A DNA stretch of 64,000 bases from Lingula anatina (Eukaryota > Animalia > Brachiopoda), in contig CM120645.1 in NCBI GenBank assembly GCA_051362555.1, forward strand, positions 3,720,001-3,784,000, given 5' to 3'. Below the pieces are notes generated by a model. It saw only the letters and a program-made list of their open reading frames with translations, had not been told where the DNA came from and did no database searches. A program made the translations under genes and the position numbers. Below, one piece after another: positions 449-45,769 of the stretch; the first letter of the stretch is position 1, and the number at the start of each line of letters is the position of its first letter.

Positions 449-3400
449 ATGGCTTACAGACAAGTTGTAGCAGGTGGAGAGAGTCTTCATCTCTTACATA
501 AGCTACAGTTGTCTCCACAATCCAAGACACCAGACACTGTGCTGGAATGGACTAAGCTTGATATAAACAATGTTGGTATAGACAACTTACCAGAGTCCAT
601 TGACAGGTGTGCAAATGTTCAGAATATATCTGCAGTATATAACAGGTTATCTTCTTTACCACAGTCCATATCCAACCTCCCACATCTCACAGTGTTGGAC
701 CTATCCAGCAATGCCTTCAATACATTCCCCATAGCACTGTGTGGCTTGACTAACCTACAGGAACTGTTCCTGTCACACAACCAGATATCTGACATACCAG
801 TGGATATCAGCAGGTTGAAGGTGCTCAGAATATTCTCCCTCTCTAACAATGCCTTTACTACATTCCCCATAGCACTTTGTAGCTTGACTGACCTAAAGGA
901 GCTGTTCCTGTTAAATAACCAGCTATCTGACATACCAGAGGATATCACCAGGTTGAAGGTGCTCAGAATATTCAAGCTCCATAACAATGCCTTCACTACA
1001 TTCCCCATAGCACTGTGTGGTTTGACTAACTTAGTGGTGCTGCACCTGTCAGAAAACCAGCTATCTGACATACCAGTGGATATCACCAGGTTGAAGGTGC
1101 TCAGAATATTCAAGCTCCATAACAATGCCTTCACTACATTCCACACAGCACTGTGTGGTTTGACTAACCTAGAGAAGCTGCACCTGTCATACAACCAGGT
1201 ATCTGACATACCAGGGGATATCACCATGTTGACAAAACTTGAGGGACTTTACCTGTCAGACAATAACATCACTCACCTGCCACCTCAAATAAAGAATATG
1301 GAAAGTCTTAGACGACTAAATGTGATTGGTAATCCTTTGGTACAACCACCTATACATATTGCCGAGAGGGGACTAGGTGCCATCAAGAGGTATTTTGAGG
1401 CATTAACTGTCACCAAGGCAATCCAGTCAAGTAGAATACAGGTCAACTTACTTGGTGAAACAGAAGCAGGAAAAACTAGCATTTCACGCACACTGCAAAA
1501 TGGAAAGTCTACCCTTACAAAGATGGCAGACAGGACAAGAGTGGTGGAGCAGGGATTATGGGAGGCTCATGAAGATGAGACTGACCTGAATATTGGCTTC
1601 AACATCAATGACTTTGGTGGACATGACATCTACAAAATAGGACATCCCATTTTTATTAACAAATGTGGCTTGGTTTTCATCACTTTTGATCTGTCGAAAT
1701 ATGACCGAGAAGACAAGGCTCATTACCAGCTCTACATTGGACACTGGATTGACAAGGTGCAGGCACAGATGCCAGAAATACAAATAGCTCTAATTGGAAC
1801 TCATCTTGATGAGGTAGAAATCCAACATGTAGAAAACATGTGTTCTGCTATAAACAAGCAACATGAAGACCACATAAACAAAAAGAAGCAGTGGTATCTA
1901 GAGCAAAAGGAGAGCATTGAGAAGAGAATAAGAGAAACACCTGAAACCCAAGCATCTCTCCAACAGGCCTATCAAAGCAAATCAGATAAACTGCAGACCT
2001 TGTATGATCAAATGAAACCCATCCACAAGGATATTTTCAGAGTCAGTTCAAAAACCTGTGAAGGAATTAAAGATCTGCGAGACTACCTCATTTCTTCTGC
2101 CAGGAGAAATGCTGAAGTTTTGCCAGGTATGTGGGTGGAAGCAGCCAAGAATATATGCACCAAGAAAATTGAAGGCTCTGAAAACACACTTGACTGGGAG
2201 ATGATTGAAGACCTCATTCTGCAGAATGCACCTACATCTTGGAAAGAGGAGAATTCAGAGGAAGAAACAGAAAAAATGATATGTGACATCTTAAGTTTTC
2301 TTGCTCATCGTGGAGACATCATTTGGTTTGATAGATGTCCCTCACTGATGAAAGTAGTTTTCCATAAGCAAGAGGTTCTAGTTAATGTTCTCAAGGCAGT
2401 CCTGAGTCATGATCAAGAGGCCGTATCAGAAAAGCTACAGAAATCCATGAAGATTACTAAAACCAAAGCAAATGCCATGCATGGAGACATTTTCACCAGA
2501 GGGATCATATCCAAAGAGGCTATGGGCTGCCTGTGTGAGCCTTTCAAATTATCAAGTACTGAAGTCAATGTCATGATAGAAATGATGCAGAAACTGGAGC
2601 TGTGCTATCAAGTCCAGGAAGATGAATCCCTCCCATCCAATACCTCATACCACTTTCCATGGCTCCTCACTGAAGAAAGGCAACCTGAGCTAGACACCAA
2701 ATGGCCCAGCAAGGTGGCCCCAGACACCACACAACTTACCCTGCAGGTTCTCTTTCCATACAAATGTCCAGATGGCTTATATGAGAAATTTTCTGTTCGT
2801 CAGCACAAGCATCTTGGACTTATGAAGACCATGCGAATGGACTGGAAGGATGGGGTGTATGCAGAACTTAAGGGATGTAAAATGCAGGTGACACGAGGGC
2901 TACACCAGCCAAGTCCTGATGCAGTCAGCCAAGTCCCAGACTGGTTTATCAGCATTGCTGTCCGTGGATCACATCTCTCAGACATGTGGGATGCTCTCAC
3001 ACAAGGCCACAGTGACCTCATGGACATCATTAAAGAGGACTGGCCTGGGCTGTCATACGACAAATATCTGATGTGTCCCCACTGTGTGAATGAGGACAGT
3101 GAGCACCCAACCCTCTTCCCTGGGGAAATACTTGAAATAACCCTGGGGACAGCTTCCAAACCAAGACAGGTATTATGTGTCAATACTGGTGTCAACATTC
3201 CTGCAGACCTGGTCTACCCACCACACCTGGTCATGAGCTGGCAGGAAGGTAAGCACAGCAGTATAATGGCATTAGTGTAATGATTCACTGTTTCTCTTTG
3301 TTATATATGTATTTTTATTCTCAAAAATGTCTAACTAACCTGATCACCTGACCATGACATCCAAAAATTGTGCTAACAGGAAGGAGGATTTTATATTTAT

Positions 3401-3868
3401 CTTATTTGGATATCTTTTACAGGTCTCTTATCAGCAAATGACAGTTATTACCCGCTATTCAAAGGACTTGTTTCCATTTTAAGAAACGGAATAATAATTA
3501 TCCACAACATTTGCTATTCATACATCATGAAAGGACTGAATGTAATTTTTAACATTCTGTAATGTGTGGCAACATTATTTTCAGTTCTGAATGAAGTAAA
3601 ACCAAAGCTATGTGAAAACATCACAGTTCATGTTCTCCTGGACATGTTGGATCTTTTCCTCCAAGAAGGCATTATAATTGACCATGAATATAAATGGGTG
3701 AAGCCAGAGCTCCCTAAACACCAAACCTCAACTACCAGGGTGGTATGTCCAGAGAAAACTGCAGTATTCTTGGACATTCTTAAAACTAAAGGGGGAAGGA
3801 CATATGATTTATTAAGGGGATGCTTCATTGAAAATGGACAAAGTGAGCTTGCTACCCTCCTCAAATAG
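449..3868 (+). CDS. MFHAS1-like: ROCO protein copy 1: LRR(~12)-ROC GTPase-COR-CARD; predicted join(449..3248,3585..3868), ~1027 aa
   Basis: 943-aa ORF with 23-aa LRRs, P-loop GETEAGKTS, DFGG (G3), GTHLD (ROCO-type G4), VSSKT (G5), COR-like region and CPHC motif. Donor GAAG|GTAAG after 3248 is phase-1 compatible with acceptor ttttcag|TTCTG at 3585. Confidence 0.9.
3585..3868 (+). CDS. Terminal CARD/death-fold exon (type B) of ROCO copy 1
   Basis: VLNEVKPKLCENITV..LLDMLDLFLQEGII..EYKWV...EKTAVFLDILKTKG..YDLLRGCF.ENGQSELATLLK fits the six-helix CARD pattern; acceptor context is conserved in all copies. Confidence 0.8.
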
Positions 3869-13082: not shown

Positions 13083-16000
13083 ATGGATTCCAGACAAGTA
13101 GCACAAAAGGAGAGACTTGATCTCTTACATAGTCTACAGTTGTCTCCGCAGTCCAAGACACCAGACACTGTGCTGGAATGGACTGAGCTTGATATAAGCC
13201 ATGCTGACATAGACAACCTACCAGAGTCCATTGACAGGTGTAGAAATGTTACGAGGATATATGCAATGAAGAACAGGTTATCTTCTTTACCACAGTCCAT
13301 ATCCAACCTCCCACACCTCACAGTGTTGGATCTCCATAACAATGCTTTCACTACATTCCCTATAGCACTGTGTGACTTGACTGACCTAGAAGAGCTGCAC
13401 CTGTCAAAAAACCAGCTATCTGACATACCAGTGGATATCAACAAGTTGAAGGTGCTCAAAATATGCCAGCTCAGTAACAATGCCTTCACTACATTCCCCA
13501 TAGCACTGTGTGGCTTGACTAACCTAGAGGAGCTGTTTCTGGGTGACAACCAGCTATCTGACATACCAGTGGATATCACCAGGTTGAAGGTGCTCAGAAT
13601 ATTCTGGCTCTCTAACAATGCCTTCACTACATTCCCCATAGCACTGTGTGACTTGACTGACCTAAAAGTGCTGAACCTGTCAAATAACAAGCTATCTGAC
13701 ATACCAGTGGATATCACCAGGTTGAATATGCTGAAAATATTTCAGCTCAGTAACAATGAATTCACTACATTCCCTATAGCACTGTGTGGTTTGACTAACC
13801 TAGAGGAGCTGGGTCTGGGTGACAACCAGCTATCTGACATACCAGTGGATATCACAAAGTTGAAGTTGCTCAGAATATTCAAGCTCCATAACAATGCCTT
13901 CACTACATTCCCCATAGCACTGTGTGGCTTGACTAACCTAGAGGAGCTGTATCTGGGTGACAACCAGCTATCTGATATACCAGTGGAAATCACCAGGTTG
14001 AAGGTGCTCAGAATATTCAAGCTCTACAACAATATGAATGCCTTCACTACATTCCCCATAGCACTGTGTGGCTTGACTAACCTAGAGGAGCTGCATCTGG
14101 GTGACAACTTGATATCTGATATACCAGAGGATATCACCAGGTTGAAGGTGCTCAGAATATTCAAGCTCCATAACAATGCCTTCACTACATTCCCCATAGC
14201 ACTGTGTGGCTTGACTAACCTAGAGGAGCTGTATCTGGGTGACAACCAGCTATCTGATATACCAGTGGATATCACCAGGTTGAAGGTGCTCAGAATATTC
14301 AAGCTCCATAACAATGCCTTCACTACATTCCCCACAGCACTGTGTGGTTTGACTAACTTAGAGGAGCTGCTCCTGTCAGAAAACCAGCTATCTGACATAC
14401 CAGTGGATATCACCAGGTTGAAGGTGCTCAGAATATTCTTGCTCAAAAGCAATGCCTTCACTACATTCCCCACAGCACTGTGTGACTTGACTGACCTAAA
14501 AGTGCTGAACCTGTCAAATAACCAGCTATCTGACATACCAGTGGATATCACCAGGTTGACAAAACTTGAAACACTTAACCTTCAAGGTAATAACATCACT
14601 CACCTGCCACATCAAATTAAGAATATGGAAAGTCTTAGACAACTAAATGTGAATGGCAATACTCTGGTACAACCACCTAAAGATACTGCCAACAGGGGAC
14701 TAGGTGCCATCAAGAGGTATTTTGAGGCATTAACTGACACCAAGGCAATCCAGTCAAGTAGAATACAGGTCAACTTACTTGGTGAAACAGAAGCAGGAAA
14801 AACTAGCATTTCACGCACACTGCAAAATGGAGAGTCTACCCTTACAAAGAAGGCAGACAGGACAAGAGTGGTGGAGCAGGGATTATGGGAGGCTCATGAA
14901 GATGAGACTGAGGTGAATATTGGCTTCAACATCAATGACTTTGGTGGACATGACATCTACAAAATAGGACATCCCATTTTTATTAACAAATGTGGCTTGG
15001 TTTTCATCACTTTTGATCTGTCTAAATATGACCCAGAAGACAAGGCTCATTACCAGCTCTACATTGGACACTGGATTGACAAGGTGCAAGCACAGATGCC
15101 AGAAATACAAATAGCTCTAATTGGAACTCATCTTGATGAGGTAGAAATCCAACATGTAGAAAACAAGTGTTCTGCGATAAACAAGCAGCATGAAGACCAC
15201 ATAAACAAAAAGAAGCAGTGGTATCTAGAGCAAAAGGAGAGCATTGAGAAGAGAATAAGAGAAACACCTGAAACCCAAGCATCTCTCCAACAGGCCTATC
15301 AAAGCAAATCAGATAAACTGCAGACCTTGTATGATCAAATGAAACCCATCCACAAGGATATTTTCAGAGTCAGTTCAAAAACCTGTGAAGGAATTAAAGA
15401 TCTGCGAGACTACCTCATTTCTTCTGCCAGGAGAAATGCTGAAGTTTTGCCAGGTATGTGGGTGGAAGCAGCCAAGAATATATGCACCAAGAAAATTGAA
15501 GGCTCTGAAAACACACTTGACTGGGAGATGATTGAAGACCTCATTCTGCAGAATGCACCTACATCTTGGAAAGAGAAGAATTCAAAGGAAGAAACAGAAA
15601 AAATGATATGTGACATCTTAAGTTTTCTTGCTCATCGTGGAGACATCATTTGGTTTGATAGATGTCCCTCACTGATGAAAGTAGTTTTCCATAAGCAAGA
15701 GGTTCTAGTTAATGTTCTCAAGGCAGTCCTGAGTCATGATCAAGAGGCCGTATCAGAGAAGCTACAGAAATCCATGAAGATTACTAAAACCAAAGCAAAT
15801 GCCATGCATGGAGACATTTTCACCAGAGGGATCATATCCAAAGAGGCTATGGGCTGCCTGTGTGAGCCTTTCAAATTATCAAGTACTGAAGTCAATGTCA
15901 TGATAGAAATGATGCAGAAACTGGAGCTGTGCTATCAAGTCCAGGAAGATGAATCCCTCCCATCCAATACCTCATACCACTTTCCATGGCTCCTCACTGA

Positions 16001-17310
16001 AGAAAGGCAACCTGAGCTAGACACCAAATGGCCCAGCAAGGTGGCCCCAGACACCACACAACTTACCCTGCAGGTTCTCTTTCCATACAAATGTCCAGAT
16101 GGCTTATATGAGAAATTTTCTGTTCGTCAGCACAAGCATCTTGGACTTATGAAGACCATGCGAATGGACTGGAAGGATGGGGTGTATGCAGAACTTAAGG
16201 GATGTAAAATGCAGGTGACACGAGGCCTACACCAGCTAAATCCTGATGCAGTCAGCCAAGTCCCAGACTGGTTTATCAGCATTGCTGTCCGTGGATCACA
16301 TCTCTTAGACATGTGGGGTGTTTTCAGACAAGGTCACAATGACCTCATGAACATCATTAAAGAGGACTGGCCTGGGCTGTCATATGACAAATATCTGATG
16401 TGTCCCCACTGTGTGAATGAGGACAGTACACAGCCAACCCTCTTCCCTGGAGAGATACTTGACCTAACCCTGGGGACAGCTTCCAAACCAAGACAGGAGA
16501 CATGTGTCAACACTGGTGTCTCCATTCCTGCAGACCTGGTCTACCCACCACACCTGGTCATGAGCTGGCAGGAAGGTAAACACAGCAGTATAATGGCATT
16601 GTTTTCTTTATTTTGTTTCTCTTTGCTCAACAATTTTGTCAAACTGCCCTCACCTAAACATGACATCCAAAAAGCATACAAACAAGAAGGTTTTACATTC
16701 ATTTGTTTTCATTAAGCGCTGCATTTTAGCTATAAAAACATAACCCCAATGATTGTCTTCAGACACTTGGTACTGTATTTTTTAAAAACTGTTCATGTAT
16801 TATCTCCATGTGCTTAGTTAACATGTAAATAACTGTTCTTACAGCAGTACGGATTTTTTCTGTTAAATCTTTTCTATTCTTCTACACTTGCGTCTGCCCA
16901 TGTGTCAAATCCTTATTTTAATATTGAAATCATCCACTAAAATTCAATTTTTACATAATGACAACAGATATTTTATCTGTCATGAATACCATTAAAAAAT
17001 GGCTGTTTTATTGTTTTCAGTTCTGAATAAAGAAAAACCAAGCCTTTGTGAAAAAATCACAGAACCCTGTCTCCTGGACATGTTAAATGAGTTTCTCCAA
17101 GAAGGCATCATCACCCTTCGTGAAGCTGAAATGGTGAGAGCAGAGCCTCCTCAACACCATGACCAAACCTCAACTACCAGGGTGGTATGTCCAGAGAAAA
17201 CTGCTGTCTTCCTGGATATTTTAACCAGGAAACCTGTCAGGGCACATAATACTCTGTGCCGATGTCTTCAGGAACAAGGACAGACTGATCTTCTTAAAAT
17301 GATCCAGTAA
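13083..17310 (+). CDS. MFHAS1-like: ROCO protein copy 2: LRR(~22)-ROC-COR-CARD; predicted join(13083..16575,17021..17310), ~1260 aa; alternative last exon 20344..20627
   Basis: 1210-aa ORF with the same ROC motifs; donor GAAG|GTAAA after 16575; phase-1 acceptors at 17021 and 20344. Confidence 0.9.
17021..17310 (+). CDS. CARD exon type A (ROCO copy 2)
   Basis: VLNKEKPSLCEKITEPCLLDMLNEFLQEGII...EKTAVFLDILTRKPVRAHNTLCRCLQEQGQTDLLKMIQ*; acceptor ttttcag. Confidence 0.8.
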
Positions 17311-17334
17311 GGGGACTTTCCTAGACTGATAATC

Positions 17335-17445
17335 CAACTTTTCTAAGTATTTACAAAATGAAAGGGGACAAGGCATTTAATTTATTAATGGAATACCTCA
17401 AGTAATATGGACAAAGTGAGCTTGTTTACCTCTTTAAATATAGCA
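17335..17445 (+). pseudogene. Remnant of CARD C-terminal half
   Basis: TFLSIYKMKGDKAFNLLMEYLK*YGQSELVYLFK resembles the type-B CARD end and is followed by type-B 3'UTR-like sequence; paralog at ~46678-46786. Confidence 0.65.
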
Positions 17446-17712
17446 AATGCAGTTCAACTGACTGTATGGACTCACCACCTGCAGCAGTCATGTCATGTAG
17501 TTGTATTCTCAACTGTTCAGTAGTCTTGGATGTGCTTAAAAGATTTGACCATTCTGGCCTGCAATATCGTTTTGACAGTCAAAAAAATTCAAATAGTTAA
17601 TCATTTGAACTAAGAAACTAGCCATGTACCTACAATTCACCGGTTGACTGGATGCCTAATAATGCATCAGACCAAGAGCCATTTAATCTATCAGAAGAGA
17701 AACGAAAAGCAG

Positions 17713-17905
17713 CAAGCATTTGAAGGTTTGACCAATTTACTGCAGTTAGTTCTGAACAATAATGACATCAAGTCCATCCCTACCACCTCCTTCAGCGGCC
17801 TGCCGTCTTCCTTGACATACTCAAAACCAGAGGAGATAAGGCATTTGTTTTATTGAGGAAATGTCTCACTGAAAATGGACAAAGTGAGCTTGTTTCCCTT
17901 TTAAT
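17713..17905 (+). pseudogene. Foreign 'typical'-class LRR fragment fused out of frame to a second CARD C-terminal remnant
   Basis: QAFEGLTNLLQLVLNNNDIKSIPTTSFSGLP, then in another frame AVFLDILKTRGDKAFVLLRKCLTENGQSELVSLL; paralog at ~47062-47255. Confidence 0.65.
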
Positions 17906-18237
17906 ACCTGTGGCAGTCATGTCCTGTAGTTGATGTTCCCAATGTTTATTAATTCCTACTGTAGTGAAACACTTAGGCCTAATTGGCTGTATACATCTAG
18001 CTTTTTGAAAAGAAAAACAAACAATTAATCTTGACCAGATAGACTAAAGAACTGTAATTCCTGGCAGCTGCTTTACCCAGTGACCATCATCAATCCATAT
18101 AATCCATAAGTGAGAATGAGGACATGAGAGCTGATCATCATCAATCTAGAGACCACCTTACATGGAAATGATGGAGCAAGAATGGATGAAGAGTGAACAT
18201 TGGCAGGGATTATAATGATAGCTGTGGTATGCTACTT

Positions 18238-18405
18238 GGTGGGAAGAGGAGAATGGTTGGAAGAGGAGCTAGGTGGGAAGAGGAGCGTAGTGGGAAGAGG
18301 AGCCTGGTGGGACGAGGAGCATGGTGGGAAGAGAAACATGGTGGGAAGAGGAGCGTGGTGGGAAGAGGAGCATGGTGGGAAGAGGAGGGTGGTGGGAAGA
18401 GGAGT
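18238..18405. repeat. 17-bp purine-rich minisatellite (ggtgggaagaggagcnt), ~10 copies
   Basis: Visible direct repeats; about 5 copies in the paralog at 47596-47680. Confidence 0.85.
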
Positions 18406-19369
18406 AAGGTATGCAGTTGGCCACCTACAGGTTAGAACATGTTATATGATAGGCCAATATTGTTTTATTAGATGGTGATGTCTGTCTAGTTTTTTATCAG
18501 TAATGGAGGGGGAGGATGGACAGCAGAACATGTGATATGATAGGCCAATATTGTTTTATTAGATGTTGATGTCTGTCTAGTTCTGTATCAGAAATGGAGA
18601 GGGAGGGTGGAGGAATACCTTACACTGAGATGCTGCTTAACAAATGTGAAAAGTTATTCTTAATTAGGAATGCACTATGCTGCATTAGATTAAACCCCCT
18701 TATATGAACTTATAATACTACAACAACAGCTATAGGTCTTTATTGCCAGCCCAATATTTTAGTGTCACAGAGAAATGGGGCTTTAAGGATGGAAAACCTT
18801 TTCTTGTAAATTTGAGCACACAAAACAGCTGGTGAAGTTTGTTGCTGGATTCTTAATAAAATGTTATAACTTCTACAGGTAAGACCACTTTAGCCAGGGA
18901 CTTGATGTCATATAATCCATCAGATGAGGAATGGGAAAGCTGGAACTCCAACCAGTTCCTGGAGTATCAGGGACATGTGAAACCCAAGTTCCAGTCATAT
19001 CCTGCCTACGACAAGATGATGTGGAGGATGACAATTCAAAACAGTCAGTGCAGTGACATGTGACAAACACCAGCCAGCTGCAGAGTCAGGTTTGTACAGT
19101 TATATATTTAAAAATTTGTTACCCCTTTTTACATTTTCAGAATTGGTAAAAAGTTGTGAAGACAATTTAAGCAAAATGTATCTGGCATGTTACCTGCCTG
19201 AATAAAGACCATACAAACCTTAGGGTGAAAAACTATTAGTAAGGTATACTCTATGGTGAGCCAAAATTACAGACTGACACCAATTTTATATTATACATCA
19301 AACTATAGAAAAAATTACTTTCATGTTATCCAGTGGAGTTAAAACATATTTGTTCTCTTCTTTCCACAG

Positions 19370-19631
19370 AACACAGTATCAACAGTTTATCTCTGCTAAG
19401 CAGTGCATCAGACAGTACTCCTCCCAACACACAGAGCACCAGCAGCACTGGACTGAACTCTCTGGAAACCTTCAACCCTAATCCTAAACTAGCCAATCAC
19501 AACGGGGCCCAGGACAGGTCAACAAGCCCAGTGGCCATGTTTCACCATCTGCTGCAGTGGTTTAACATCAGCTCCGTGCCTCACACCAGATGAACAGCAG
19601 ATATAGTTATCACATACAACAGACAATCCAG
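19370..19631 (+). other. Exon-like Ser/Thr-rich segment between the two CARD exons (phase-1 acceptor; stop at 19593)
   Basis: tttccacag|AACACAGT...CAATCCAG|gtatt; paralog at 48650-48911; a second exon-like segment at 18879-19089. Confidence 0.4.
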
Positions 19632-20343
19632 GTATTAATTATTTGGATGACTTTCTCTAAGCCATTTCAATGGCTAATTGTCTTTGTTTATAGATGCATA
19701 ACATTTTTGAAAATGCTTTTGAAACAGTGGCAGTATTAATCGTTACATGTACTGCTTGAAATTAATAAAACAGGGCAAGGTCTGTATTAAGAAAAATAAT
19801 TTATTTTACTGGAAAAAAACACCCTGCATTTTAATTATTATTTGGTAATTTGGACTTTTTTGTACAGAACAATCTTATTCAATTAATGCTTGCCTGCTTG
19901 CCTCCTTGTCACAGTACTCATGTGTCCCCGGACATAATTCTCATACCACATCTCACACATTGTCAACACAATAAAGTAATGCGTTTAATTATTTGTTGAT
20001 TATTTTCAAAATGGTCACTTAACATTATGATAATGTGGGGTAGTAATCCTTCACTTTACAGTTGTCTTTGGTAGATGTTTAGACAAGTGATTTAGACAAA
20101 TAATACACATTGTATTAGCTGGGTGGGTCCAATTTTGCTGGGCGTTCTTGCTTAAGTGCAATCAGTGGAATCAGCTTAATCAGCAAATGACAGTTATTAC
20201 CCCCTAGACAAAGGTTTTGTTTTCATTTTAAGTGATGGAGTAATATAAGTAATCATTCACAACATACATTTGCTATTTATACATCTAAAAGGACTGGATG
20301 TAATTTTTAACATTCTGTAATGTGTGGACAACATTATTTTCAG

Positions 20344-20627
20344 TTCTGAATGAAGTAAAACCAAAGCTTTGTGAAAACATCACAGTTCCTGGTCTCCTGG
20401 ATATGTTGGATGTTTTCCTCCAAGAAGGCATTATCACTGACCCAGAATATGAATGGGTGAAGCCAGAGCTCCCTCAACACCAAACCTCTACTACCAGGGT
20501 GGTATGTCCAGAGAAAACTGCAGTATTCTTATATATTCTCAAAACTAAAGGGAACAATGTATTTGATTTATTAAGGGAATGCCACAGTAAAAATGGACAA
20601 AGTGAGGTTGCTACCCTCCTTAAATAG
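20344..20627 (+). CDS. CARD exon type B (alternative terminal exon of ROCO copy 2)
   Basis: Open 284-nt frame, same acceptor and phase as 3585..3868. Confidence 0.7.
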
Positions 20628-21245
20628 AATAAGTGACCAAGAGAACTGACTCTATGGACTCACTCAGACTATGTGACTATGTGACATTTATTCAGTCAAT
20701 CACTTTGGCCACACTGATTTAAAATATCTCAGTCTAAATGGGAAATCTTTTTCACAAACAGTAATAGACTATCAGATTGTTCAAAACGCCAATTGTTGTA
20801 TAATTAAAGTATAGCAAAAATGTACACATGTAAATACACAGGTATAACCAAAGAACAGTCAAGTAGAATATATTGCATTAAAATAAATGTGCTTTTTATT
20901 GGAATTTATTTAGATAAATTAAGATTGTTGATGTAAATAATCACTGAGTCAAATCATTACTATGCCAGTGGCAGTACAATGTGGTAGTATTAAACAGAAT
21001 TTCATTGAATTAATAAATTATTTCTGAGACATTAAAATTTTAGGATTAAGTATCTTTTTAGTCCACCCAATACACCAACCACAAATGTTATGTGTAGTAT
21101 AACAATAAAACATAATAGTTTGCCTGCAGCAGTAGCTCATAGAGCAGGGTGACCAAACAAACCCAATGATTCACCTACCACAAAAGACTTAAGTGATTTC
21201 TCCTTAATTTTCCCTCATTTCAGTCAAGGTAGTTGTGGAAGCTGG

Positions 21246-22104
21246 CTATCCTCCGTTTCTCTCCTCCAGATAACACATCCTTCCAGTCACTCTCAGCTCC
21301 ACAGCCTGGAACACAACAACTCTTAATGGATAATGAATTAAAATTAATATATATTTTTTAAATTTTCAAATACATTTTGAATATTTCAGACAAAGTGTGA
21401 TATAACTAGTCTTAATGAAATAAAGTAATAAAGTGGTTTTAGATTATAAATGATTTAGATTTGCAGATATCATCCCTTAACATAATTTTGAAATGAGATA
21501 TCCACTAGCGAAGGAGACGGGGATTTGACTTTACTTAACTCTAAACTCCCAAGCCAATAAAATTAAAACAAGATATAGTTATTATAATTAAATGGAAACA
21601 TATCAGATGACATGATTAATTAGGATTAAGATGCGTTACTCCTGTGATGAACATAGATAATGTATATACATATGAAAATAGAAACTGTATCAATCAAAAA
21701 CTTTACATATTTTCTGCAGATATCTTAGTACCCTCTTCTCTCTGTATAATATGTTGCAGGTTTACACATCTGAATATATCTTTGAGTGGTGTTTTGGGTG
21801 GTGGTTTGAGTAGGCGACCATTATACACAGCCACAGACCACTTAGAATACAGAACAGGGAGCTCTTACCACAGCCATTACAGCCTGTTACATGTATCAGC
21901 AGGTGCATGTTGTGGTCCATCTGGAAATATCATGCTGAATATGAAAGCAACCTGCCTCTTTACCAAACAAAGCCACTCAGTAAATTTAAGTAAAACAAAA
22001 ATACAGTATGGCAGTTCTGAGCCCGGGGCGACTTTTAGAACAGCTAGGGAGCTCTTACCAAAGCCATTGGAGCCTGTCATTAGCAGGTCCATGTTGTGGT
22101 CCAT
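21246..22104 (-). pseudogene. ABCD2: ABCD1/2-like exon 8 (partial, 21246-21305), fused exon 6/7 (~21731-21920) and a duplicated exon-6 start (~22046-22104)
   Basis: [10 protein letters not shown]; degenerate Walker A (NGCGKSS / TGSNGFGKSS); KPPP and NLQHIIQREEG, with frameshifts. Confidence 0.75.
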
Positions 22105-24542
22105 CTGGAAATATGCTGATTTCTGCAACCTGTCTCTTTACCAAAAAAGCCACTCGGAAAATTAAAAGTTTGTCAGTTCTGGGGTGAACTTCATGTGTCG
22201 GACAGTGACAGGATGGTGACAACACAGACAGACAGAAAAATCAGAATATATAGAGAAACTTACAGTGACTGTATATAAAACCAGCATAACTTTGAAAAAA
22301 TGCCCCAATCAGGCTGATTTTCAAATTCTACCTGTATTTTATTATCAATTATCAGTTCCATAAGTTTGAAGAAAAAAAGACAAATGTTTTTTCACTTACT
22401 GTGTTTTCACTGAAAGTGCATGGCAATGGCATCAGTGACAACAGATGCAGATTACGGCTATATTGACAGACACATCTGTCTCTGCATAAAAAGTGTTGCT
22501 TTCCGAAGTATTAAAAAACAGTTCATTTAAAAAAGAAGCATTTTTTGGTTTTGCTTCATCCAGAACTGAAAATAATGTTGTCCACACATTACAGAATGTG
22601 CAATCAACTTAACTGTATGACATGGCATTAAGTATAAAACAGAAAAGCTGGTGGTTATAAGATTAGTTGCAACAAGAGGTGGCGTTCCCTGTTCAGGCGT
22701 AGCCAACTGCACTCAGCCAGAGTTCCCCCCTCCCACAGTTGGGTTGATTTTTGTAGACCAGTTGTGTCTATGGGAATGGAGCTTTAGAAACAGTCTATTT
22801 TTAATCTTCAGTATGAGTTAAGATACATTATACTTATTCTGTGACACATATTCAAGACTGCAGTAGAACGTGTTAAAAAGATAGTTTTCAATTTCGACCA
22901 ATTTATTGTCCTTGTTTCAGGCTGTTAGACATGGTTTCCAGTTGGTGTGTGTAAAAGAACCTTGATATAGAAGACCTAGATTATGCTCTCAAATGAATGT
23001 ACTCTTGCTTTCTTCTACAGCTCTCAGGCTCAACAGTTTTATCAGAAACAAGTTTTTTTCCTCTGTGCATGAACAAGTGTGCGCGTGTGCATGCACGTGG
23101 GTTCAACTACCATCCCAACCATGTCAAAGTAAAGAGGGTTGCAATCAACTGACTGTCTTTTGAAGTTGCCCATATAAATGTCAAAATTCCTAATATACTA
23201 TAATTATAGTATCACAACAGGTAAAAACAAATGACAGATAAATGTGCAGTGCTCAATATAATCCATTTCATGTAGTTAAAATACTGGTATGTTAATAAGC
23301 TAACTAATACTGATGGAACACTTAGACAATGGCAGGAGATTATAGATTATTCATTGAGATCTAGGGAGAAATTATATTACATCTGAACCACATTTTATTT
23401 ATCTATTTTTTTATGTGCATGTGTATAAGTATGCCTTCTGTGAAGAAGATGTTTTAAATGCCTTCTAACTTATACTCTGACTACAATGCTTTGTTATATA
23501 TTATGAAAATTCTGACTTTATTTCTGAAAACTAGTTTTAAAAATGTTTATCAAATATTAAAGAATTAAACTTATTCCACAGATTTATTTTTATAATACTG
23601 GTGCTCTCCTTGAATGAACAAAGTAAAAATTGAAAATGAAAATCAAATTTTATACTATAATATATATGATATCATACATGTATCACAATTCTATCAAAAA
23701 GACATAATTTAAATATAAATAATAATCATTAGTTTCAGGAGCATAAAGAATTGTTATATAAATACAGTTTATCATGAAAACTAGACAAAATAAATAAAAT
23801 GGTTTTATCCAGGAGTTGAACTTCTAGCTACTGTATACATTTGAAACACCCAATCAGAAATTCCTCATCCATTTAAAAGTTGACAGGTAAAAATATTGGA
23901 AATAAAAACAGCCTTACTTCAGAATAATCTTGTTCAAGATTTGTCATTTCATATCAACTATTACCAGAAAACTAAAGTATGACATGATAAAAAGCAGAAA
24001 AATTACAATTTTCTATAGCAGATTAAGGATCTGAAAACTTTTGGAGTTTTTATCTGTGCAGACTGCGTGGAACATCAAAAGGTATCACTTATTTTCATTT
24101 CTAAACAAAGAAAACATGTACAATAGTATTCACATCAATAGATACACTTTAACTATTACATTCATAAGTTATATTTCAATAGTTGAGGTTGTAACCAGAT
24201 TATAACACAACACTAGGTTAGTTCTTTTGTTATACATCATTGATTTTTGGAACAACAATTTCTCCACAAGTACACTACAACATACAGTTTTTTTTTAACA
24301 TTCTCTGCATTATGTATTTGGACATCTTTGGCACCTAATAATTAACAATTACACACAGGATTATACATCTCTTCCTACCATTTTTATACACTTATATCAT
24401 ATATATCATGTGCTATGAATAATTGGTAAGGATGCTCTTCTTGTTCAACTCTAGAGAACAATTCCTTGTCATCCCTTTCACACCTCTCCCTCTCCATCTC
24501 TTTTCGATCTCTAGCTTACACCAAAAAGGAAACAAAAGCAGA

Positions 24543-24576
<34 letters not shown>

Positions 24577-24688
24577 AGCTGACCATGGTGCATTATCAAC
24601 AGTGTCCCGTAAGAGCCCTGACCCCTTGGGTTGAATATACTGACCATAGTCAAGCTCAGTCCTAATATGCACAGTCAACAGTGTCCAA

Positions 24689-24920
24689 TCACAGCACTGA
24701 CGCCTCTGGCTGTATCAGATGACCATGGTCCAGTAACACAGAGTCCTCCCCCAAAATGGAGCACAACTCCTGTAGCCTCTGCTGCATCTTAGGTATACCT
24801 GCCAGCTGAGCCTCCAGTCCCTGCTTCTCCTCATTGAGAGACAGGCGTGTGGCAGTGTCCAGCTCCTCTAATCTCCAGCCTACCTCACCGTCAAACTGGA
24901 GCAAATGAGTGTGGAACTTC
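24689..24920 (-). pseudogene. ABCD2: ABCD1/2-like terminal exon 10 (open frame, orphan)
   Basis: ttttccag|[64 protein letters not shown]...*. Confidence 0.85.
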
Positions 24921-27871
24921 CTGGAAAATTGATAAATATTCAGTATGCTGCAGAGTTTACTAAGTGAAGATCTTTGGAAGTAATTGTGAATTGCAGAAAA
25001 ATGTGATTACTGAATACAAAATGAGTTTTGGAAGTATGGAAATAATTTAAGAAAGAAAAAAAATTGGGGACATTATGAAGTACAGTCAAGTATCTGTGAA
25101 CCAAGTACCAGACTCATTTTCAGTAGAGACATAAAAATCTGAGAGTAATGTAGAACATTTCCATTGCTCTTAAACCTGTTCTCTGTCCTAGCTTTACTCT
25201 TTCTAATGTCTTATGATACCTCTTTTCAGCAGTGACCAATTATTTTGACTCTAGTAAGTTAATCATGACCCCAGAACTATGTCACTTCAATGTACAAATT
25301 GATATTACTTCAATAACAGTAAGACAGTGTCATGCAGGGTCTTGTGACATATTTAATCTACCTCCTCCCTGTGTACACACACCAGTAGAGGTGAACTGGG
25401 AGAGATAGGGAGACCAAACTTTAAATAAATATCTCGCCAGAACGATACTTACAAGAGACTTCACATTTTAATGTTACAACATTTTCTCCAACCAAAAGCA
25501 AAGATTTTTTTCATAATAAAATCTCAATAGCAAATTATATTTTACATCAGGCTCACTGCTTTGAGGACAAGGCACTTTATATTATTATCTCTAGTGACAT
25601 ACCGGAAGGCAAAATCAACATCACATGATGTTATTTGCTGAGGCCATCTTTTTTTCTGCATTTTTAAGTGTGGCCAGAAGTTTGAGATGGCTATAAAATT
25701 CTATCATACTACCTGAGGTTGTTGACAGCTTGGACTGAGCAAGAACTTGTATTTCAAAGTAAGTCCATCTTGATGATAGATATTTCAAATTATTATAAAT
25801 ATTTAAATGGATAAACACCTAAATTGGGGATCTTTTTCTTTCATATCCATAAATGGGCATTTCTATTTAGTTGATTAAATTTGATAATATCAAAATAAGT
25901 TTTTTTTTTTAATTTGCTATTACCCTATGAGAAATTTTTGGGAGTATCTTCATTCTTTTTAATTGATAAAATTTTGCATAAAATCTAGACGCCTGGCTTG
26001 AGACAAAAATGTTCATTATATCACTTAATATTTTCATCCACTACAGTTACAGTGCAGGGCCAACTGAACCAGAAGTTTATAGAGCCACCTTCTGAGTATG
26101 TACCAGCAGCAGGTTTTGTGAGTCACCTTACAGCAGAGTAACTGTAACTTGTAAACAGGTAAGGTGGAAAGATTTGTAGGAAAATATTATATAATACTTT
26201 AAGTTATTCCATCTACAGCAGTAACAGAATACCATCAGCTCCACCAGTTGTTCATATAATGGTAGAGGCACCTTCTTAAAATTCCCATGGCCCTGCATCT
26301 TACATTTCTGTTAATTGTATTTATTTATTTTTTTTATCTCACATGCCAAGAGGTACATGGGACTTCACTGAAACATCTTTCATTAATTGTAAATAATTAT
26401 TAACCCTGGTTGTAATTTAATGCAATTTTACTTCTTTATTTCTATGGATTGAGTGTGTTTGCCATTCAATGTCAATTAAATGGATCTTGTTTATTTACAG
26501 GCAGTTGGTTTGAGGATGTTTTGTGTTATTTTGTGTATAATTTCATGTTAAAACATCCTATAGGTGACTTGAAGCATTACACAATTATCTGCTTAAAAAC
26601 ATTCAAACTGGTCATGAGCTAGCTAGTAGGACAGCTGAAGTGGACCCTATTGAAGCAGCTAACCAATAAACTGATATCTATACTTGTTCAAACTTGTCCT
26701 ATTTTATCATGCTTGATTTTCTATTTCTATGTTTTCTTCTGCTGGTCCTTTTTACTAATGGCTTTCAACAGTACAAATGTGTTTTTTTTCCAGAGAGCAT
26801 AATATTCTTCCTGTACCCTTGTCCAGATGCCTATCATACCATCCAAAACTAAAAACCTTAAGTCAGAAGGTATATAATGTTATTTATACTGAAACTTTTT
26901 TATCTTGACTACAAGATAACTGTAATGACATGAATCAATTTGAATCAACTGTTTAAACTCCTTTCAATTTACTCAATGTTATAATTTACTTCTAAACCTT
27001 CTTAGGACTTCAAAACTTCTATTTATGCTGAATACTTTTATGCCACAAATCAATTTTAACCAACTCTTTAAACAAAAAATACTTTCAAGTAATAAACTCA
27101 AAAATTCATTAGCTCTTCATGAATTACTTAGTTTTTATACCATTACAGTAATAAAACAATGTTTGAATAGTTTTGTGCAAGATAGACACCTGCTTTTTCT
27201 GTTGATTTTTGCTTGCCAGTAAAAACACTGAACATATTTTTTATTCTTAATGTTTTTTTTTTTTTTTTTTTTTCAGAAAACCTGTACTCTTGTCTATATC
27301 CACATTACATCCCATGAGGTAATAAAATTTACTGCCTTATACACAAATATCTAACTTTCACATTATGCAAAGTGGTTAAAATGCACCAAAGAAATATATG
27401 TTCACAACTTGTGCCAAATGAAGAGTACTTCTGTCACCAAAACATTTCTCTACATTTAAGGTATTTACAATATATTTCCAGCTTGTCACTGTCTACAGTA
27501 ACAGTCATACTATACAGTCATACTATACAGGGGAAATAATTAAATGTAATTATTGACAACAAATCCCACATATCAAACCACTGAGTATAGCTTTTTAAAC
27601 AAAAGAAGTACCTGCCACTTTTCTACCAATTCATCATTTTGTAATTTCAGATTACAAGAGGATTCAAGGACCAAAAATATGGTTTTAGGACTAAGTTGAT
27701 AATTTTCTTTAGTTACCTTTCTTATTTAAGCAAATTGTCTGTTACCAGGGGAAAAACTGCTAAAATTGGTGACAAACACATAATTACCAACTCAATCCTT
27801 CAAATATTATAACCTATGAACATAAGCATATAGAGCCGTGACACTTCTTCCTACTAATCCATTCCTGAGAC

Positions 27872-30800
27872 ATGGCTTACAGACAAGTAACAGCAGGTAC
27901 AGAGATACTTGATCTCTTACATGGGCTACAGTTGTCTCCACAGTCCAAGACACCAGACACTGTGCTGAAATGGACTCGGCTTGATATATACTGTGCTGGT
28001 ATAGACAACCTACCAGAGCCCATTGACAGGTGTAGAAATGTTAAGAAGATATCTGCAAGGAAGAACAGGTTATCTTCTTTACCACAGTCCATATCCAACC
28101 TGCAACACATCAAAACATTGATCCTATCAAGCAATGCCTTCACTACATTCCCCATAGCACTGTGTGCCTTGGCTAAACTCAAGGTGCTGGACCTGGGTGA
28201 CAACCAGCTATCTGACATACCAGTGGATATCACCAGGTTGAAGGTGCTCAGAATATTTCGGCTCAAAAACAATGCCTTCACTACATTCCCCATAGCACTG
28301 TGTGGCTTGAATAACCTAAAGGAGCTTTACCTAGGTGGTAACCAGATATCTGACATACCAGTAGATATCACCAGGGTGAAGAGCCTTAGAATATTCCAGC
28401 TCCGTAACAATACCTTTGCTACATTCCCCATAGCACTGTGTGGCTTGACTAACCTAGAGAAGCTGAACCTGTCACACAACAAGCTATCTGACATACCAGT
28501 GGATATCAGCAGGTTGAAGGTGCTCAGAATATTCTACCTCTCTAACAATGCCTTCACTACATTCCCCATAGCACTGTGTGGCTTGACTGACCTAAAAGAG
28601 CTGTTCCTGTTAAACAACTGGATATCTGACATACCAGTGGATATCAGTAGGTTGAAAAAACTTGAGACACTTAACCTGTCAGGCAATAACATCACTCACC
28701 TACCACCTCAAATAAAGAATATGGAGAGTCTTAGACAACTAGATGTGGGAGGTAATCCTCTGGTACAACCGCCTAAAGATACTGCCAACAGGGGATTAGA
28801 TGCCATCAAGAGGTATTTTGAGGCATTAACTGACACCAAGGCAATCCAGTCAAGTAGAATACAGGTCAACTTACTTGGTGAAACAGAAGCAGGAAAAACT
28901 AGCATTTCACGTACATTGCAGCTTGGGCAGCCAACACTCACTAAGGTGGCAGACAGAACGAGAGTAGTAGAACAAGGAACATGGGAGACTGGCGAAGACA
29001 TTGGCTTCAATATCAATGACTTTGGTGGTCATGATGTCTACAAAATAGGACATCCCATTTTTATTTCCAAATGTGGCTTGGTATTCATCACTTTTGATCT
29101 GTCTAAATATAAGCCAGAAAACAAGGCTCATTACCAACTCTACATTGGGCACTGGATTGACAAGGTGCAGGCACAGATGCCAGGGATACAAATAGCTCTA
29201 ATTGGAACTCATGTTGATGAGGTAGAAATCCATCATGTAGAAAGCAAGTGTTTTGCAATAAAGAAGCAACATGAAAACCACATATACAAAAAGAAGCAGT
29301 GGTATCAAGTGCAAAAGGAGAAAATTGAGAAGAGAATGAGAGAAACGTCTAAAACCCAAGCATCTCTCCGCCAGGCCTACCAAAGCAAAGCAGTTAAAAT
29401 GCAGACCTTGTATGATAAAATGAAACCCATCCACAAGCACATTTTAAAAGTGAGTTCAAAAACCTGTGAAGGAGTTAAAGAGCTGAGAGACTACCTCATT
29501 TCTTTTGCCAGGACAAATGCTGAAGTTTTGCCAGGTATGTGGGTGGAAGCAGCCAAGAATATCTGTACCAAGAAAATTGAAGGCTCTGAAAACACACTTG
29601 GCTGGGAGATGATTGAAGACCTCATTCTGCAGAATGCTTCTACATCATGGAAAGAGAAGTCAAAGGAAGAAACAGAAAGAATGATATGTGACATCTTAAG
29701 TTTCCTTGCTCATCGTGGAGACATCATTTGGTTTGACAGATGTCCCACACTGATGAAAGTAGTTTTCCACAAGCAAGAGGTTCTAGTGAATGTTCTCAAG
29801 GCAGTCTTCAGTCATGATCAAGAGGCAGTATCTCAGAAGCTCCAGAAATCCATAAAGATTACTGAAACCAAAGCAAATACCATACATGAAGACATTTTCA
29901 TCAGAGGCATCATATCCAAAGAAGCTATGAGCTGCCTGTGTGAGCCTTTCAAATTGTCAAGCACTGAAGTTAATGTCATGATTGAAATGATGCAGAAACT
30001 GGAGCTGTGCTATCAAGTCCAGGAACATGAATCCCTCCCATACAATACCTCATTCCACTTTCCATGGCTCCTCACTGAAGAAAGGCAACCAGAGCTAGAC
30101 ACCAAATGGCCCAGCAAGGTTCCCCCAGATACCACTCAACTGACCCTGCAGGTTCTCTTTCCATACAAATGTCCAGATGGCCTCTATGAGAAAATTTCTG
30201 TTCGTCAGCACAAGCATCTTGGACTTATGAAGACCATGCGAATGGACTGGAAGGATGGGGTGTATGCAGAACTTGAGGGATGCAAAATGCAGCTGACACG
30301 AGGGCTACACCAGCCAAATTCTGATGCAGTCAGCCAAGTCCCAGACTGGGTTATCAGCGTTGCTGTCCGTGGATCACATCTCTCAGACATGTGGAGTGTT
30401 CTCAAACAAGGTAACAGAGACCTCATGAACATTATTAAAGAGGACTGGCCTGGACTGTCTTATGAGAAATATCTGGTGTGTCCTCACTGTGTGAGTGAGG
30501 AAATTGAGCACCCAACCCTTTTCCCTGGAGAGATACTTGACCTAACCCTTGGGGCGACCTCCAAACCAAGACAGGTGCCATGTATCAACACTGGTGTCTC
30601 CATTCCATCAGACTTGGTCTACCCACGAAGCTGGCAGGAGGGTAAGCTCAATACTATTCAGTGGTCCACTGCTTCTCCTTCTTATGTACAACTTTATTCT
30701 CAAAAATGTTGTAAAACTACCCTCACCTAAATATGACAGAGAAAAAGGTGGTTACAGTAAGAAGGATTTTATGATGTTTATTTTATTGGTGATCTCTCAC

Positions 30801-31208
30801 ATGTGCCTGTCTGTCAAAGAGTTCACTCAGATCTACTCATTGTATTAGCTGGCTTGGTCCAACCTTGCTAGGCATTCTTGCTAAAGTGCAATCAGTTGAA
30901 GCAACTTAATCAGCAAATGATTGTTAATTACCCCCTTGATGCTTAAGGAGGCGTGTTAGTCTATTAAGCTGATTCCACTGATTGCCCTTTAGTGAAAATA
31001 CCCATCAGAGTTGGACAAACCCAGGTAGTATGATGTGTGAATCTGAATGTAGTCAAAGGCCTTGTTTTAATTTAAGAAATTGAATAAGTAATCATCCACA
31101 AAAACTGTTATTAGTACATCAAGACAGGACTGAGTGAAATTTTTTACATTCTGTAATGTGTGGACAACATTATTTTCAGTTCTGGATGAAGTAAAACCAA
31201 AGCTTTGA
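27872..31208 (+). CDS. MFHAS1-like: ROCO protein copy 3: LRR(~12)-ROC-COR with truncated CARD; predicted join(27872..30641,31180..31208)
   Basis: 952-aa ORF; donor GAGG|GTAAG after 30641; the CARD exon has an in-frame TGA at 31206-31208. Confidence 0.85.
30825..31050. mobile_element. Old MITE-like inverted repeat in the COR-CARD intron
   Basis: ~85-bp imperfect arms (cattgtattagctggcttggtccaa...caatcagttgaagcaacttaat / attaagctgattccactgattg...gttggacaaacccaggtagtatgatg); also at 61012-61245. Confidence 0.6.
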
Positions 31209-31463
31209 CAAAATATCACAGTTCCTGGTCTCCTGGACGTGTTGAATCTTTTCCTCCAAGAAGGCATTATCACTGACCATGAATTTGAATGGGTGAAGCC
31301 AGAGCTCCCTCCACACCAAACCTCAGCTACCAGGGTGGTATGTCCAGAGGAAACTGCAGTATTCTTGGACATTCTCAAAACTAAAGGGAAAAGGGCATTT
31401 GATTTATTAAGGGAATGCTTCATTGCAAATGGACAAAGTGAGCTTGCTAACCTTCTTAAATAG
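31180..31463 (+). pseudogene. CARD exon type B with premature stop (TGT>TGA, 10th codon)
   Basis: AAG CTT TGA CAA versus AAG CT(T/A) TGT GAA in paralogs; the rest of the frame is open to 31463. Confidence 0.8.
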
Positions 31464-42000: not shown

Positions 42001-42718
42001 GGCATTGTTCTCTTTCTTTTGTTTCTCTTTGCTCAACAATATTGTCAAACTGCCCTCACCTAAACATGACATCCAAAAAGCGTACAAACAAGAAGGTTTT
42101 ACATTCATCTGTTTTCATTAAGCACTGCATTTTAGCTTTAAAACATAACCCAATGATTGTCTTCCCATAATTGGTACTGTATTTTTTAAAAAATGTTCAT
42201 ATATTATCTCCATGTACTTAGTTAACATGTAAATAACTGTTCTTACAGCAGTAAGGCTTTTTTTCTGTGCAATCTTTTGTATTCTTCTACACTCGCCTCT
42301 GCCCATGTGTCCAATCTTTATTTTAATATTGAAATTATCCACTAAAATTCAATTTTTACATAACAACAACAGATAATTTTTTTTTTGTCATGAATATCAT
42401 TTAAAAGTAGCTGTTTAATTTTTTTCAGTTCTGAATAAAGAAAAACCAAGCCTTTGTGAAAAAATCACAGAACCCTGTCTCCTGGACATGTTAAATGAGT
42501 TCCTCCAAGAAGGCATCATCACCCTTCGTGAAGCTGAAATGGTGAGAGCAGAGCCTCCTCAACACCATGACCAAACCTCAACTACCAGGGTGGTATGTCC
42601 AGAGAAAACTGCTGTCTTCCTGGACATTTTAACCAGGAAACCTGTCAGGGCACATAATACTCTTTGTCGATGTCTTCAGGAACAAGGACAGACTGATCTT
42701 CTTAGATTGATCCAGTAA
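39062..42718 (+). CDS. MFHAS1-like: ROCO protein copy 4: LRR(~14)-ROC-COR-CARD; predicted join(39062..41981,42429..42718); alternative last exon 49608..49891
   Basis: 1019-aa ORF with ROC motifs; donor after 41981; phase-1 acceptors at 42429 and 49608. Confidence 0.9.
42429..42718 (+). CDS. CARD exon type A (ROCO copy 4)
   Basis: Nearly identical to 17021..17310. Confidence 0.8.
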
Positions 42719-45572: not shown

Positions 45573-45769
45573 GGCTGTATTCCCAGAGCTTTTAGATTGA
45601 TCTGTCCCCGCGGGGAGTCTAACTAGATTACTGTCAGATAATCCGGCTTAAATGTCCATCCCGCCTACTACAAGCTGTAAGGGGGTATTTAACTTTCGTG
45701 TCCGCCCCACTGACAGCTGTTTAGCGTGAACCCCTAAAGTAGATCTATCTAATCTCTGGAAATGAGGTC
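45573..45769. mobile_element. Tourist-like MITE nested in the TIR element
   Basis: Reverse complement of 31699-31911; TTA TSD. Confidence 0.75.

Follow-up and report, generated by a model that had tools for sequence, protein, structure and literature searches.

Do the genes of a tandem receptor array share one history along their whole length, or do different segments of the same gene have different closest relatives? The question arises for a 64-kb stretch of DNA from Lingula anatina (hereafter the window, meaning the whole stretch that was analyzed), whose paralogs had been read, in a preliminary description, as mosaics formed by frequent gene conversion or unequal crossover. The best explanation, which we consider likely, is ectopic gene conversion together with unequal exchange between misaligned copies in the receptor cluster.

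Five LRR-ROC-COR-CARD genes in tandem

Six-frame reading of the window returned five long open reading frames (ORFs) on the plus strand, starting at 449, 13083, 27872, 39062 and 57017. Every long ORF has LRR, Roc and COR matches in Pfam: Roc and COR-B lie above the cut-off in all five copies, and COR-A is matched in all five, below its own cut-off. CARD matches above the Pfam cut-off were found in all five short downstream frames that we scanned. The genes follow a common plan, in which a single large exon encodes LRR-ROC-COR up to WQE and is followed by a phase-1 intron and a last exon with CARD. The window is a tandem array of five such LRR-ROC-COR-CARD genes (Table 1). It contains seven CARD exons, of type A after copies 1, 3 and 5 and of type B after copies 2 and 4, with an additional intact type-A exon approximately 3 kb 3' of each type-B exon in units 2 and 4.

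Table 1. Coordinates of the genes, shared tracts and insertions in the window
Feature	Position	Strand	Remarks
Copy 1 large exon	449..3248	+	9 full LRR units, ROC, COR; phase-1 GT donor after WQE; ORF, Pfam
Near-identity tract, copy 1 vs copy 2	1413..2896 vs 14740..16223	+	13 differences in 1,484 nt; likely gene conversion
15-nt ROC insertion	1575..1589	+	In copies 1, 2, 5 and database protein P0001; not in copies 3, 4
Copy 1 intron, type A	3249..3584	+	336 nt
Copy 1 terminal exon, CARD type A	3585..3868	+	Pfam CARD above cut-off
Copy 2 large exon	13083..16575	+	19 LRR units, ROC, COR; copy-1-like in 14740-16223; donor 16575 in spliced joint
Block B, unit 2	16576..20106	+	Intron B, CARD-B exon, 3' region; takes the place of the 5' part of the type-A intron
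Copy 2 terminal exon, CARD type B	17021..17310	+	98% to copy 4, 59% to copy 1
6.5-kb spacer tract, unit 2	19269..25819	+	14 substitutions and 3 indels vs unit 4, 99.8%
Displaced CARD-A exon behind copy 2	20344..20627	+	Open frame, intact acceptor; use putative
Copy 3 large exon	27872..30641	+	9 LRR units, ROC short form, COR
Copy 3 CARD-A exon	31180..31463	+	TGA stop at tenth codon
Copy 4 large exon	39062..41981	+	11 LRR units, ROC short form, COR
Copy 4 terminal exon, CARD type B	42429..42718	+	Pfam
3.9-kb insertion with inverted ends	42719..46649	.	TAA on both flanks (CARD-B stop codon); not in unit 2
6.5-kb spacer tract, second copy (unit 4)	48549..55067	+	
Displaced CARD-A exon behind copy 4	49608..49891	+	1 nt off its counterpart behind copy 2
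Copy 5 large exon	57017..60818	+	24 LRR units, ROC long form, COR
Copy 5 terminal exon, CARD type A	61369..61652	+	Pfam

The motifs GETEAGKT, DFGG, THLD (THVD in copy 3) and SSK are present in all five copies, and we take them to be G1, G3, G4 and G5. In each copy the ROC GTPase domain is directly followed by COR, the arrangement that characterizes Roco proteins, and the best relatives with solved structures are LRRK2, the Roco protein of M. barkeri (4wnr; PMC6337361) and LRRK1. Neither NACHT nor NB-ARC was matched in the window's genes in Pfam; the STAND ATPase that characterizes an NLR is thus missing among these matches, and the likeness to an NLR cluster is one of evolution only. The genes also depart from the MFHAS1 group, which has LRR-ROC-COR with no further effector, by the CARD exon spliced on, and from the brown-algal ROCOs, which have one LRR per exon, by LRRs, ROC and COR lying in one ORF in all five copies.

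Among the matching runs listed, none was recorded as RNA. Transcript evidence came from sequencing runs recorded as 'DNA?' (X3, X4 and X5), which yet contain spliced joints. The GT..AG joint 16575-17021, leading from COR to CARD-B, occurs in contigs of X4 and X5, and the same COR donor is joined to a type-A CARD in X3 and X5. The joint from the COR donor to 20344 (X3, X5) is no demonstration of displaced exon use: only 27-29 nt of the exon are covered, and in this piece a single nt sets the displaced exon apart from copies 1 and 5. The raw RNA runs X11 (67 aligned reads) and X17 (224 aligned reads) contained no joint for the window's introns; six X17 reads continue from the donor into a CARD exon that matches P0012, a different member of the family.

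Shared tracts and segment-specific relationships

The ROC-COR regions of copies 1 and 2 had been described as almost identical, with different LRRs and 3' ends, and this is what the alignment returned. In five-way ungapped columns, the two copies differ at 11 of 1,466 positions (0.75%) inside the shared tract and at 34 of 415 (8.2%) outside it, and the remaining nine pairs of copies differ by 6.2-8.5% inside the same tract. A perfect stretch of 467 nt is located at 15759-16225, and the 3' limit of the tract is 2896, in the middle of COR-B, and not 3430. The region from ROC to COR-A is under purifying selection (omega approximately 0.3; all omega values are grid fits). Constraint is no explanation for the near-identity, since only 5 synonymous differences separate copies 1 and 2, compared to 33-52 in the other nine pairs. 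The tract is bounded on both sides, which favors conversion (or a double exchange) over a single crossover. The long form of ROC probably belongs to the copy 1/5 line, as the 15-nt insertion is missing in the 12 other aligned database proteins that cover the site (12 out of 13). Judging from these sequences, conversion of the copy 2 core by copy 1 is more likely than conversion in the other direction.

Behind COR, copy 2 has another partner. Block B (3.5 kb) occurs within the window in units 2 and 4 only, and a scan for the nearest copy over 200-nt segments returned unit 4 as the sole partner of unit 2 from approximately 16576 to 20100. Homology to the type-A intron picks up again at approximately 20107 in unit 2. 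The two versions of block B are approximately 83-98% alike over 200-nt segments up to 19268, where they pass into the 6.5-kb spacer tract, with perfect stretches longer than 1 kb; past 25819 units 2 and 4 drop to approximately 85%. Similarity at two levels within a single stretch suggests that an old duplication was followed by a recent conversion. The CARD exons, the CARD-B block and the spacer tract, which lay outside the preliminary description, gave the strongest signal.

The grouping of the post-COR intron into copies 1 and 5 and copies 2 and 4 holds for the first part of the intron, where copies 1 and 5 differ at 6 of 177 nt and copies 2 and 4 carry the other type. Copy 3 has a diverged form of the copy 1/5 type. 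The intron of copy 1 is itself patchy, with a start and an end resembling copy 5 and a middle part, marked by a 108-nt deletion, resembling the intron of the displaced exons. The nearest copy shifts along every unit in the 200-nt scan. Since breakpoints are located inside COR-B, inside the intron and inside CARD, exchange follows homology rather than module limits, and modules are reassorted as a result. The idea that sensor, switch and effector modules are reassorted is hence supported for switch and effector, as copies 1 and 2 combine the same core with CARDs that are 59% identical; the breakpoints do not keep to module limits, and the LRRs are sensors by presumption.

The recombination tests support exchange among the copies. 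The PHI test on 90 informative sites gave a P-value of approximately 5e-5, which rose to 0.08 without copy 1 and to 0.03 without copy 2, and was at most 0.007 without copy 3, 4 or 5. Simulations followed the single best tree and used three rate models with 300 alignments apiece; none of the 900 alignments reached the observed statistics, either for MaxChi of the pair 1-2 (44.6, compared to a simulated maximum of 21.0) or for the PHI deficit (0.111, compared to a simulated maximum of 0.077). AU tests compared all 15 topologies in six segments, whose limits were picked after viewing the alignment. The intron rejects all 12 of the 15 trees without the 2+4 pair, the linker and COR-A reject all 12 without the 1+2 pair, and the start of ROC keeps 3+4 trees only. 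Each of the five coding segments is compatible with the topology ((1,2),5,(3,4)) (AU P-values 0.16-0.93), which fails in the intron alone (delta lnL 84). A single topology along the unit, which had been named as the result that would speak against mosaicism, therefore fits the coding part and is rejected in the intron. True topology conflict is found only at the switch behind COR, where copy 2 joins copy 4.

Within ROC-COR, a single large and recent event is accompanied by a number of smaller candidates. The latter are fragments shared by copies 1 and 5 (1361-1571), 3 and 5 (2449-2566), 2 and 4 (3113-3247) and 1 and 4 (2948-3055), with P-values of 0.0003-0.005 in a permutation test that ignores clustered rates, so that they count as candidates only. 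Because one topology fits the coding segments and the PHI signal falls without copy 1 or 2, few events may explain most of the signal. Exchange between the copies is thus upheld by PHI, simulations and AU tests, and 'frequent' describes, inside ROC-COR, largely the one event between copies 1 and 2. Overall, the array consists of chimeric paralogs with segment-specific relationships, as in a Type-I-like cluster.

The shorter patterns taken as evidence of mosaicism are all present: the 15-nt ROC indel at 1575-1589 groups copies 1, 2 and 5 versus 3 and 4, QPPKDTANRGL is shared by copies 2 and 3, KELFLLNN by 1 and 3, and LNLSHN..FYLSNN by 3 and 4. As evidence they are weak. As ((1,2),5,(3,4)) survives in the coding segments, the indel does not conflict with the 1+2 pair. 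Over the 115 nt of the hinge, copies 2 and 3 have 10 differences and copies 1 and 2 have 11, and the KDTA-type hinge is found also in the database proteins P0001, P0002, P0008 and P0009. The KELFLLNN repeats of copies 1 and 3 differ at 8 of 69 nt, compared to a between-gene median of 11. The patch shared by copies 3 and 4 at the indel was also tried as a conversion fragment and was not significant (P-value 0.27-0.42).

The LRR units of copies 1-5 number 9, 19, 9, 11 and 24, and alternate in pairs of 138 nt. One such pair is common to copies 1 and 2 in register, with 4 differences. Near-identical repeats occur also within genes, with 1 difference between repeats 2.6 and 2.18 and 2 between 1.5 and 1.7, and a block of approximately 336 nt is present three times among the LRRs of copy 5.

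Related proteins of Lingula

A database search with ROC-COR of copy 1 returned 35 proteins. The best 30 of them carry the species name Lingula anatina; most of these are labeled MFHAS1-like, and many have a CARD. The top match to the copy 1 core has 88% identity, the highest among the matches listed, and the window probably derives from another animal or assembly than the database records. The 14 best of these 35 matches entered an alignment together with the five copies. Trees for each domain were then built from 16 sequences, leaving out P0005 and P0006, which have no CARD, and P0012, which aligned at its end only. These database proteins are gene models in which misassembly is possible, and are separate from the window.

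The domain trees of the 16 Lingula sequences disagree. With the CARD data, every tree of the other domains (ROC, linker, COR-A and COR-B) is rejected (P-value at most 2e-8), and the COR-B data are likewise incompatible with each of the four trees from other domains (P-value at most 0.002). ROC, linker and COR-A conflict less strongly with one another (P-values 0.0003-0.064). P0008 and P0009 are 91-94% identical in ROC, linker and COR-A and 54% identical in CARD, so the pattern of copies 1 and 2, with the same core and different CARDs, is repeated in database proteins. The CARD of P0008 is 94-96% identical to those of copies 2 and 4. Compared to the copies in the window, P0008 and P0009 are distant in the linker (36-48% identical) and in COR-A (61-64%), yet close starting at the end of COR-A (85-90%). 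The CARDs of P0001 and P0002 are hybrids, with a first half resembling type B (85-91%) and a second half resembling type A (70-76%). P0001 is copy-5-like yet has a hybrid CARD, and runs X2 and X4 deviate from the window, observations that bear on whether one-to-one allelic relationships between individuals are lost, as in Type-I-like clusters.

Searching for ROC-COR-CARD outside Lingula, we obtained five proteins among the best 7,996 candidates scored, two of them from Lingula and three others without CARD; a profile search of this extent is no evidence that the architecture is restricted to Lingula.

Origin of the mosaic and comparison with known systems

Ectopic conversion and unequal exchange would account for the array in a few steps. 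Block B would have been grafted onto the ancestor of units 2 and 4 by an exchange that began in the 3' end of COR and had a P0008-like gene as the donor, and the unit bearing it would then have been duplicated. More recently, copy 1 would have overwritten copy 2 in the core, and the spacers of units 2 and 4 would have become homogenized. Short exchanges in the 138-nt register would reshuffle LRR pairs within and between genes.

Near-identical tracts could also reflect two haplotypes assembled in tandem, with copy 2 being an allele that is recombinant between a copy-1-like and a copy-4-like gene; the mosaic would still be the product of exchange, and the array would be shorter. In run X1, which may be the sample of the window's origin, four pieces identical to single-copy parts of unit 2 have depths of 56-60 and three pieces in shared tracts have depths of 101-115, and the single difference in each of two spacer pieces is the letter of unit 4. 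This doubled depth fits haplotypes equally. Run X2 shows no doubling of the spacer (depth 30, compared to 20-54). Alleles of copy 1 in X3 and X4 deviate from the window's copy 1 by about as few letters as copy 2 does, and the 99.8% identity of the spacer tract is likewise compatible with alleles. However, copy 2 cannot be a plain allele of both copy 1 and copy 4, and two haplotype switches would be needed within 64 kb. The flanks of both near-identical tracts are just 80-94% alike, and copies 3 and 5, each located 3' of a spacer tract, differ by 8.5-13.5%. We consider this explanation quite unlikely. An artifact of assembly or polishing, which would make copy 2 a chimera of copies 1 and 4 or the tracts a product of consensus homogenization, appears highly improbable. 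The perfect stretches of 467 nt and of more than 1 kb could be mis-joined, and no contig bridging a shared tract was found in the contig runs, the phase of copy 2 resting on the assembly. The letters of copy 2 just right of the tract, at 16226-16240, were not found as a set in any of the five contig runs: four have copy 1's letters only and X4 has two of the three, and gaps in contig cover at copy 2's COR end are evidence neither way. On the other hand, private letters of copy 2 inside the tract occur in X1 (at 15758) and in X4 (at 15023, 15034, 15166, 15176 and 15188). X4 also has the letters of copy 1 at 14912, 14913, 15576, 15585 and 15758, and a 1,089-nt contig of X3 has them in phase at 10 of the 11 diagnostic sites listed; its 14 differences in total fit all 11 diagnostic sites and three new ones. 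The private letters of both copies thus exist outside the assembly, which makes a stitched chimera unlikely. Pieces of X1 and X3 match the COR end, intron and 3' region of copy 2 without difference, four pieces of X3 doing so in the 3' region. Furthermore, tract depth is double and not single, P0008 and P0009 show the same pattern in other records, and a mis-join would swap partners, the outcome still being two genes that share one core and differ in CARD type.

A single duplication history with uneven rates, in which copies 1 and 2 are recent duplicates with fast-diverging LRRs and COR end, and shared motifs are retained ancestral states, has in our view the smallest chance of being correct. 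It agrees with the one topology that fits all five coding segments, and accounts for the hinge motif and the ROC indel. It cannot explain why intron, CARD and 9 kb of spacer group with copy 4 (the delta lnL of 84 given above), nor why the non-coding flanks of copies 1 and 2 are only 81-89% alike, and it was the model under which no simulation reached the observed statistics. We therefore retain conversion and unequal exchange as the likely origin of the mosaic.

Exchange among tandem LRR receptor genes is a textbook process. The Type I RGC2 (Dm3) NLR genes of lettuce are chimeras formed by frequent sequence exchange through gene conversion and unequal crossing over, and are likewise tandem LRR receptor genes whose LRR and nucleotide-binding parts have different nearest relatives (PMC4683639); a similar process has been proposed for fungal NLR clusters (PMC12258605). 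Unlike in lettuce, the Lingula switch is a ROC-COR GTPase and not NB-ARC, and the effector is C-terminal, on its own exon and itself swapped. The LRR-ROCO genes of brown algae, proposed to encode immune receptors, form an expanded family with variable LRR number and LRR recombination within and between genes (PMC3341825; PMC11378527). In these accounts each LRR has its own exon in an LRR-ROC-COR gene, whereas in Lingula one exon encodes LRR-ROC-COR, a CARD exon follows, and exchange also takes in core, intron, CARD and spacer. MFHAS1/MASL1, a group-1 Roco protein encoded by one of the four vertebrate Roco genes, has N-terminal LRRs and then ROC-COR, and has no CARD (PMC6337361). The Lingula relatives carry its name in the database, and the likeness is one of architecture and naming; vertebrate MFHAS1 was not among the matches listed in our searches for relatives. 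ROC-COR combined with death-fold domains gives the Lingula architecture a precedent, as Trichoplax has a set of ROCO proteins with CARD, death and LRR domains (PMC4104024) and Aplysia has ROCO-TIR/death proteins (PMC9334734). The passages on these proteins describe no tandem array, conversion or CARD exchange. We found no account of this ROCO family of Lingula in the literature searched, although a survey of the Lingula immune system may describe it; the relevant passages of PMC8195603 mention Lingula in other contexts only.

What is new is the exchange of CARD exons in an animal ROCO array, by a mechanism that is itself of a known kind. The substrate is a ROCO family of an animal whose CARD has a last exon to itself. 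Genes of this family exchange the output domain, in the window and again in P0008 and P0009, and recombination has occurred even within CARD. This suggests that ROC-COR GTPases can fill an NLR-like role in an animal. Copies 1 and 2, with one core and two CARD types, are a natural pair for studying how a Roco switch acts on its effector. The array is also a warning for annotation, as one-to-one orthologs and single gene trees may have little meaning in such a family.

The five genes probably have an immune function. Their products would be cytosolic receptors with ligand-binding LRRs, a ROC-COR module serving as a GTP-dependent dimer switch, and a CARD for the recruitment of a CARD partner. New pairings of sensor and output would then arise by exchange, with purifying selection keeping the core. 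A broader and rather unlikely proposal concerns a combinatorial system of cytosolic receptors in Lingula, with a ROCO GTPase in the place of a STAND ATPase. Approximately 30 LRR-ROC-COR-CARD genes would reshuffle LRR sensors, cores and CARD outputs. The part of COR that forms the Roco dimer would be kept similar between distant lineages, as in P0008 and P0009 compared to the window copies, so that paralogs would form mixed dimers, and copies 2 and 4 would choose CARD-B or the displaced CARD-A as last exon.

Variation in the LRRs is unevenly distributed. At the exposed positions the best-fitting omega is approximately 2 in A units and at least 5 in B units, each with a 2 delta lnL of approximately 4 on trees of recombining repeats, a faint hint of diversifying selection; the pairwise pN/pS is 0.93. 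Most of the amino-acid variation is held by these six exposed positions (pN of 0.335, compared to 0.081).

CARD exons and the regions behind them

The features discussed here are collected in the table below. The premature stop in the CARD-A exon of copy 3 would mean either a product without a CARD or a dying copy; a similar CARD in the Lingula database protein P0009 has a cysteine at this position. The displaced CARD-A exons, which lie behind block B (intron B, the CARD-B exon and its 3' region) downstream of copies 2 and 4, are possible alternative last exons. The joints found behind CARD-B in sequencing run X3 represent further spliced exons, belonging either to the 3' UTR or to another transcript. 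Near the right end of block B, the short high-copy sequence reaches a depth of approximately 2,500 and shows many loose ends in runs X1 and X2.

Coordinates of the features within the window
Feature	Position	Remarks
Tandem repeat, units of ~140 nt	8710-9603	Spacer behind copy 1
Splice joints behind CARD-B	18424-18873; 19073-19367	Run X3; one with GT..AG
Short high-copy sequence	20150-20185	Near right end of block B
Displaced CARD-A exons	20344-20627; 49608-49891	Acceptor and frame both kept
TGA stop	31206-31208	Codon 10 of copy 3 CARD-A exon
3.9-kb insertion	42719-46649	Exactly at stop codon of copy 4 CARD-B exon
Frames inside insertion	43658-44287	Candidate LINE tail
LRR block of ~336 nt	57274-58421	Three times in copy 5

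Insertion in copy 4

The insertion splits the coding end of copy 4 from the 3' region still found in copy 2. It is flanked by TAA on either side, a target that would fit PIF/Harbinger, and it carries short inverted repeats at its very ends and longer ones just inside them. We take the frames inside it to resemble a LINE tail by motif.

Repeats and variant domain sets

The tandem repeat behind copy 1 turned up in none of the other four units of the window. Among the Lingula records matching the ROC-COR of copy 1, P0012, P0018, P0024 and P0030 combine COR and CARD without an LRR domain, and P0015 carries PF18738 (which we take to be HEPN/DZIP3-type) in place of the CARD. Each of the five could be a genuine variant or an incomplete gene model. 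The LRR block repeated in copy 5 comes with a shortened repeat, which reproduces the beginning of the LRR stack; P0001 carries the block once.
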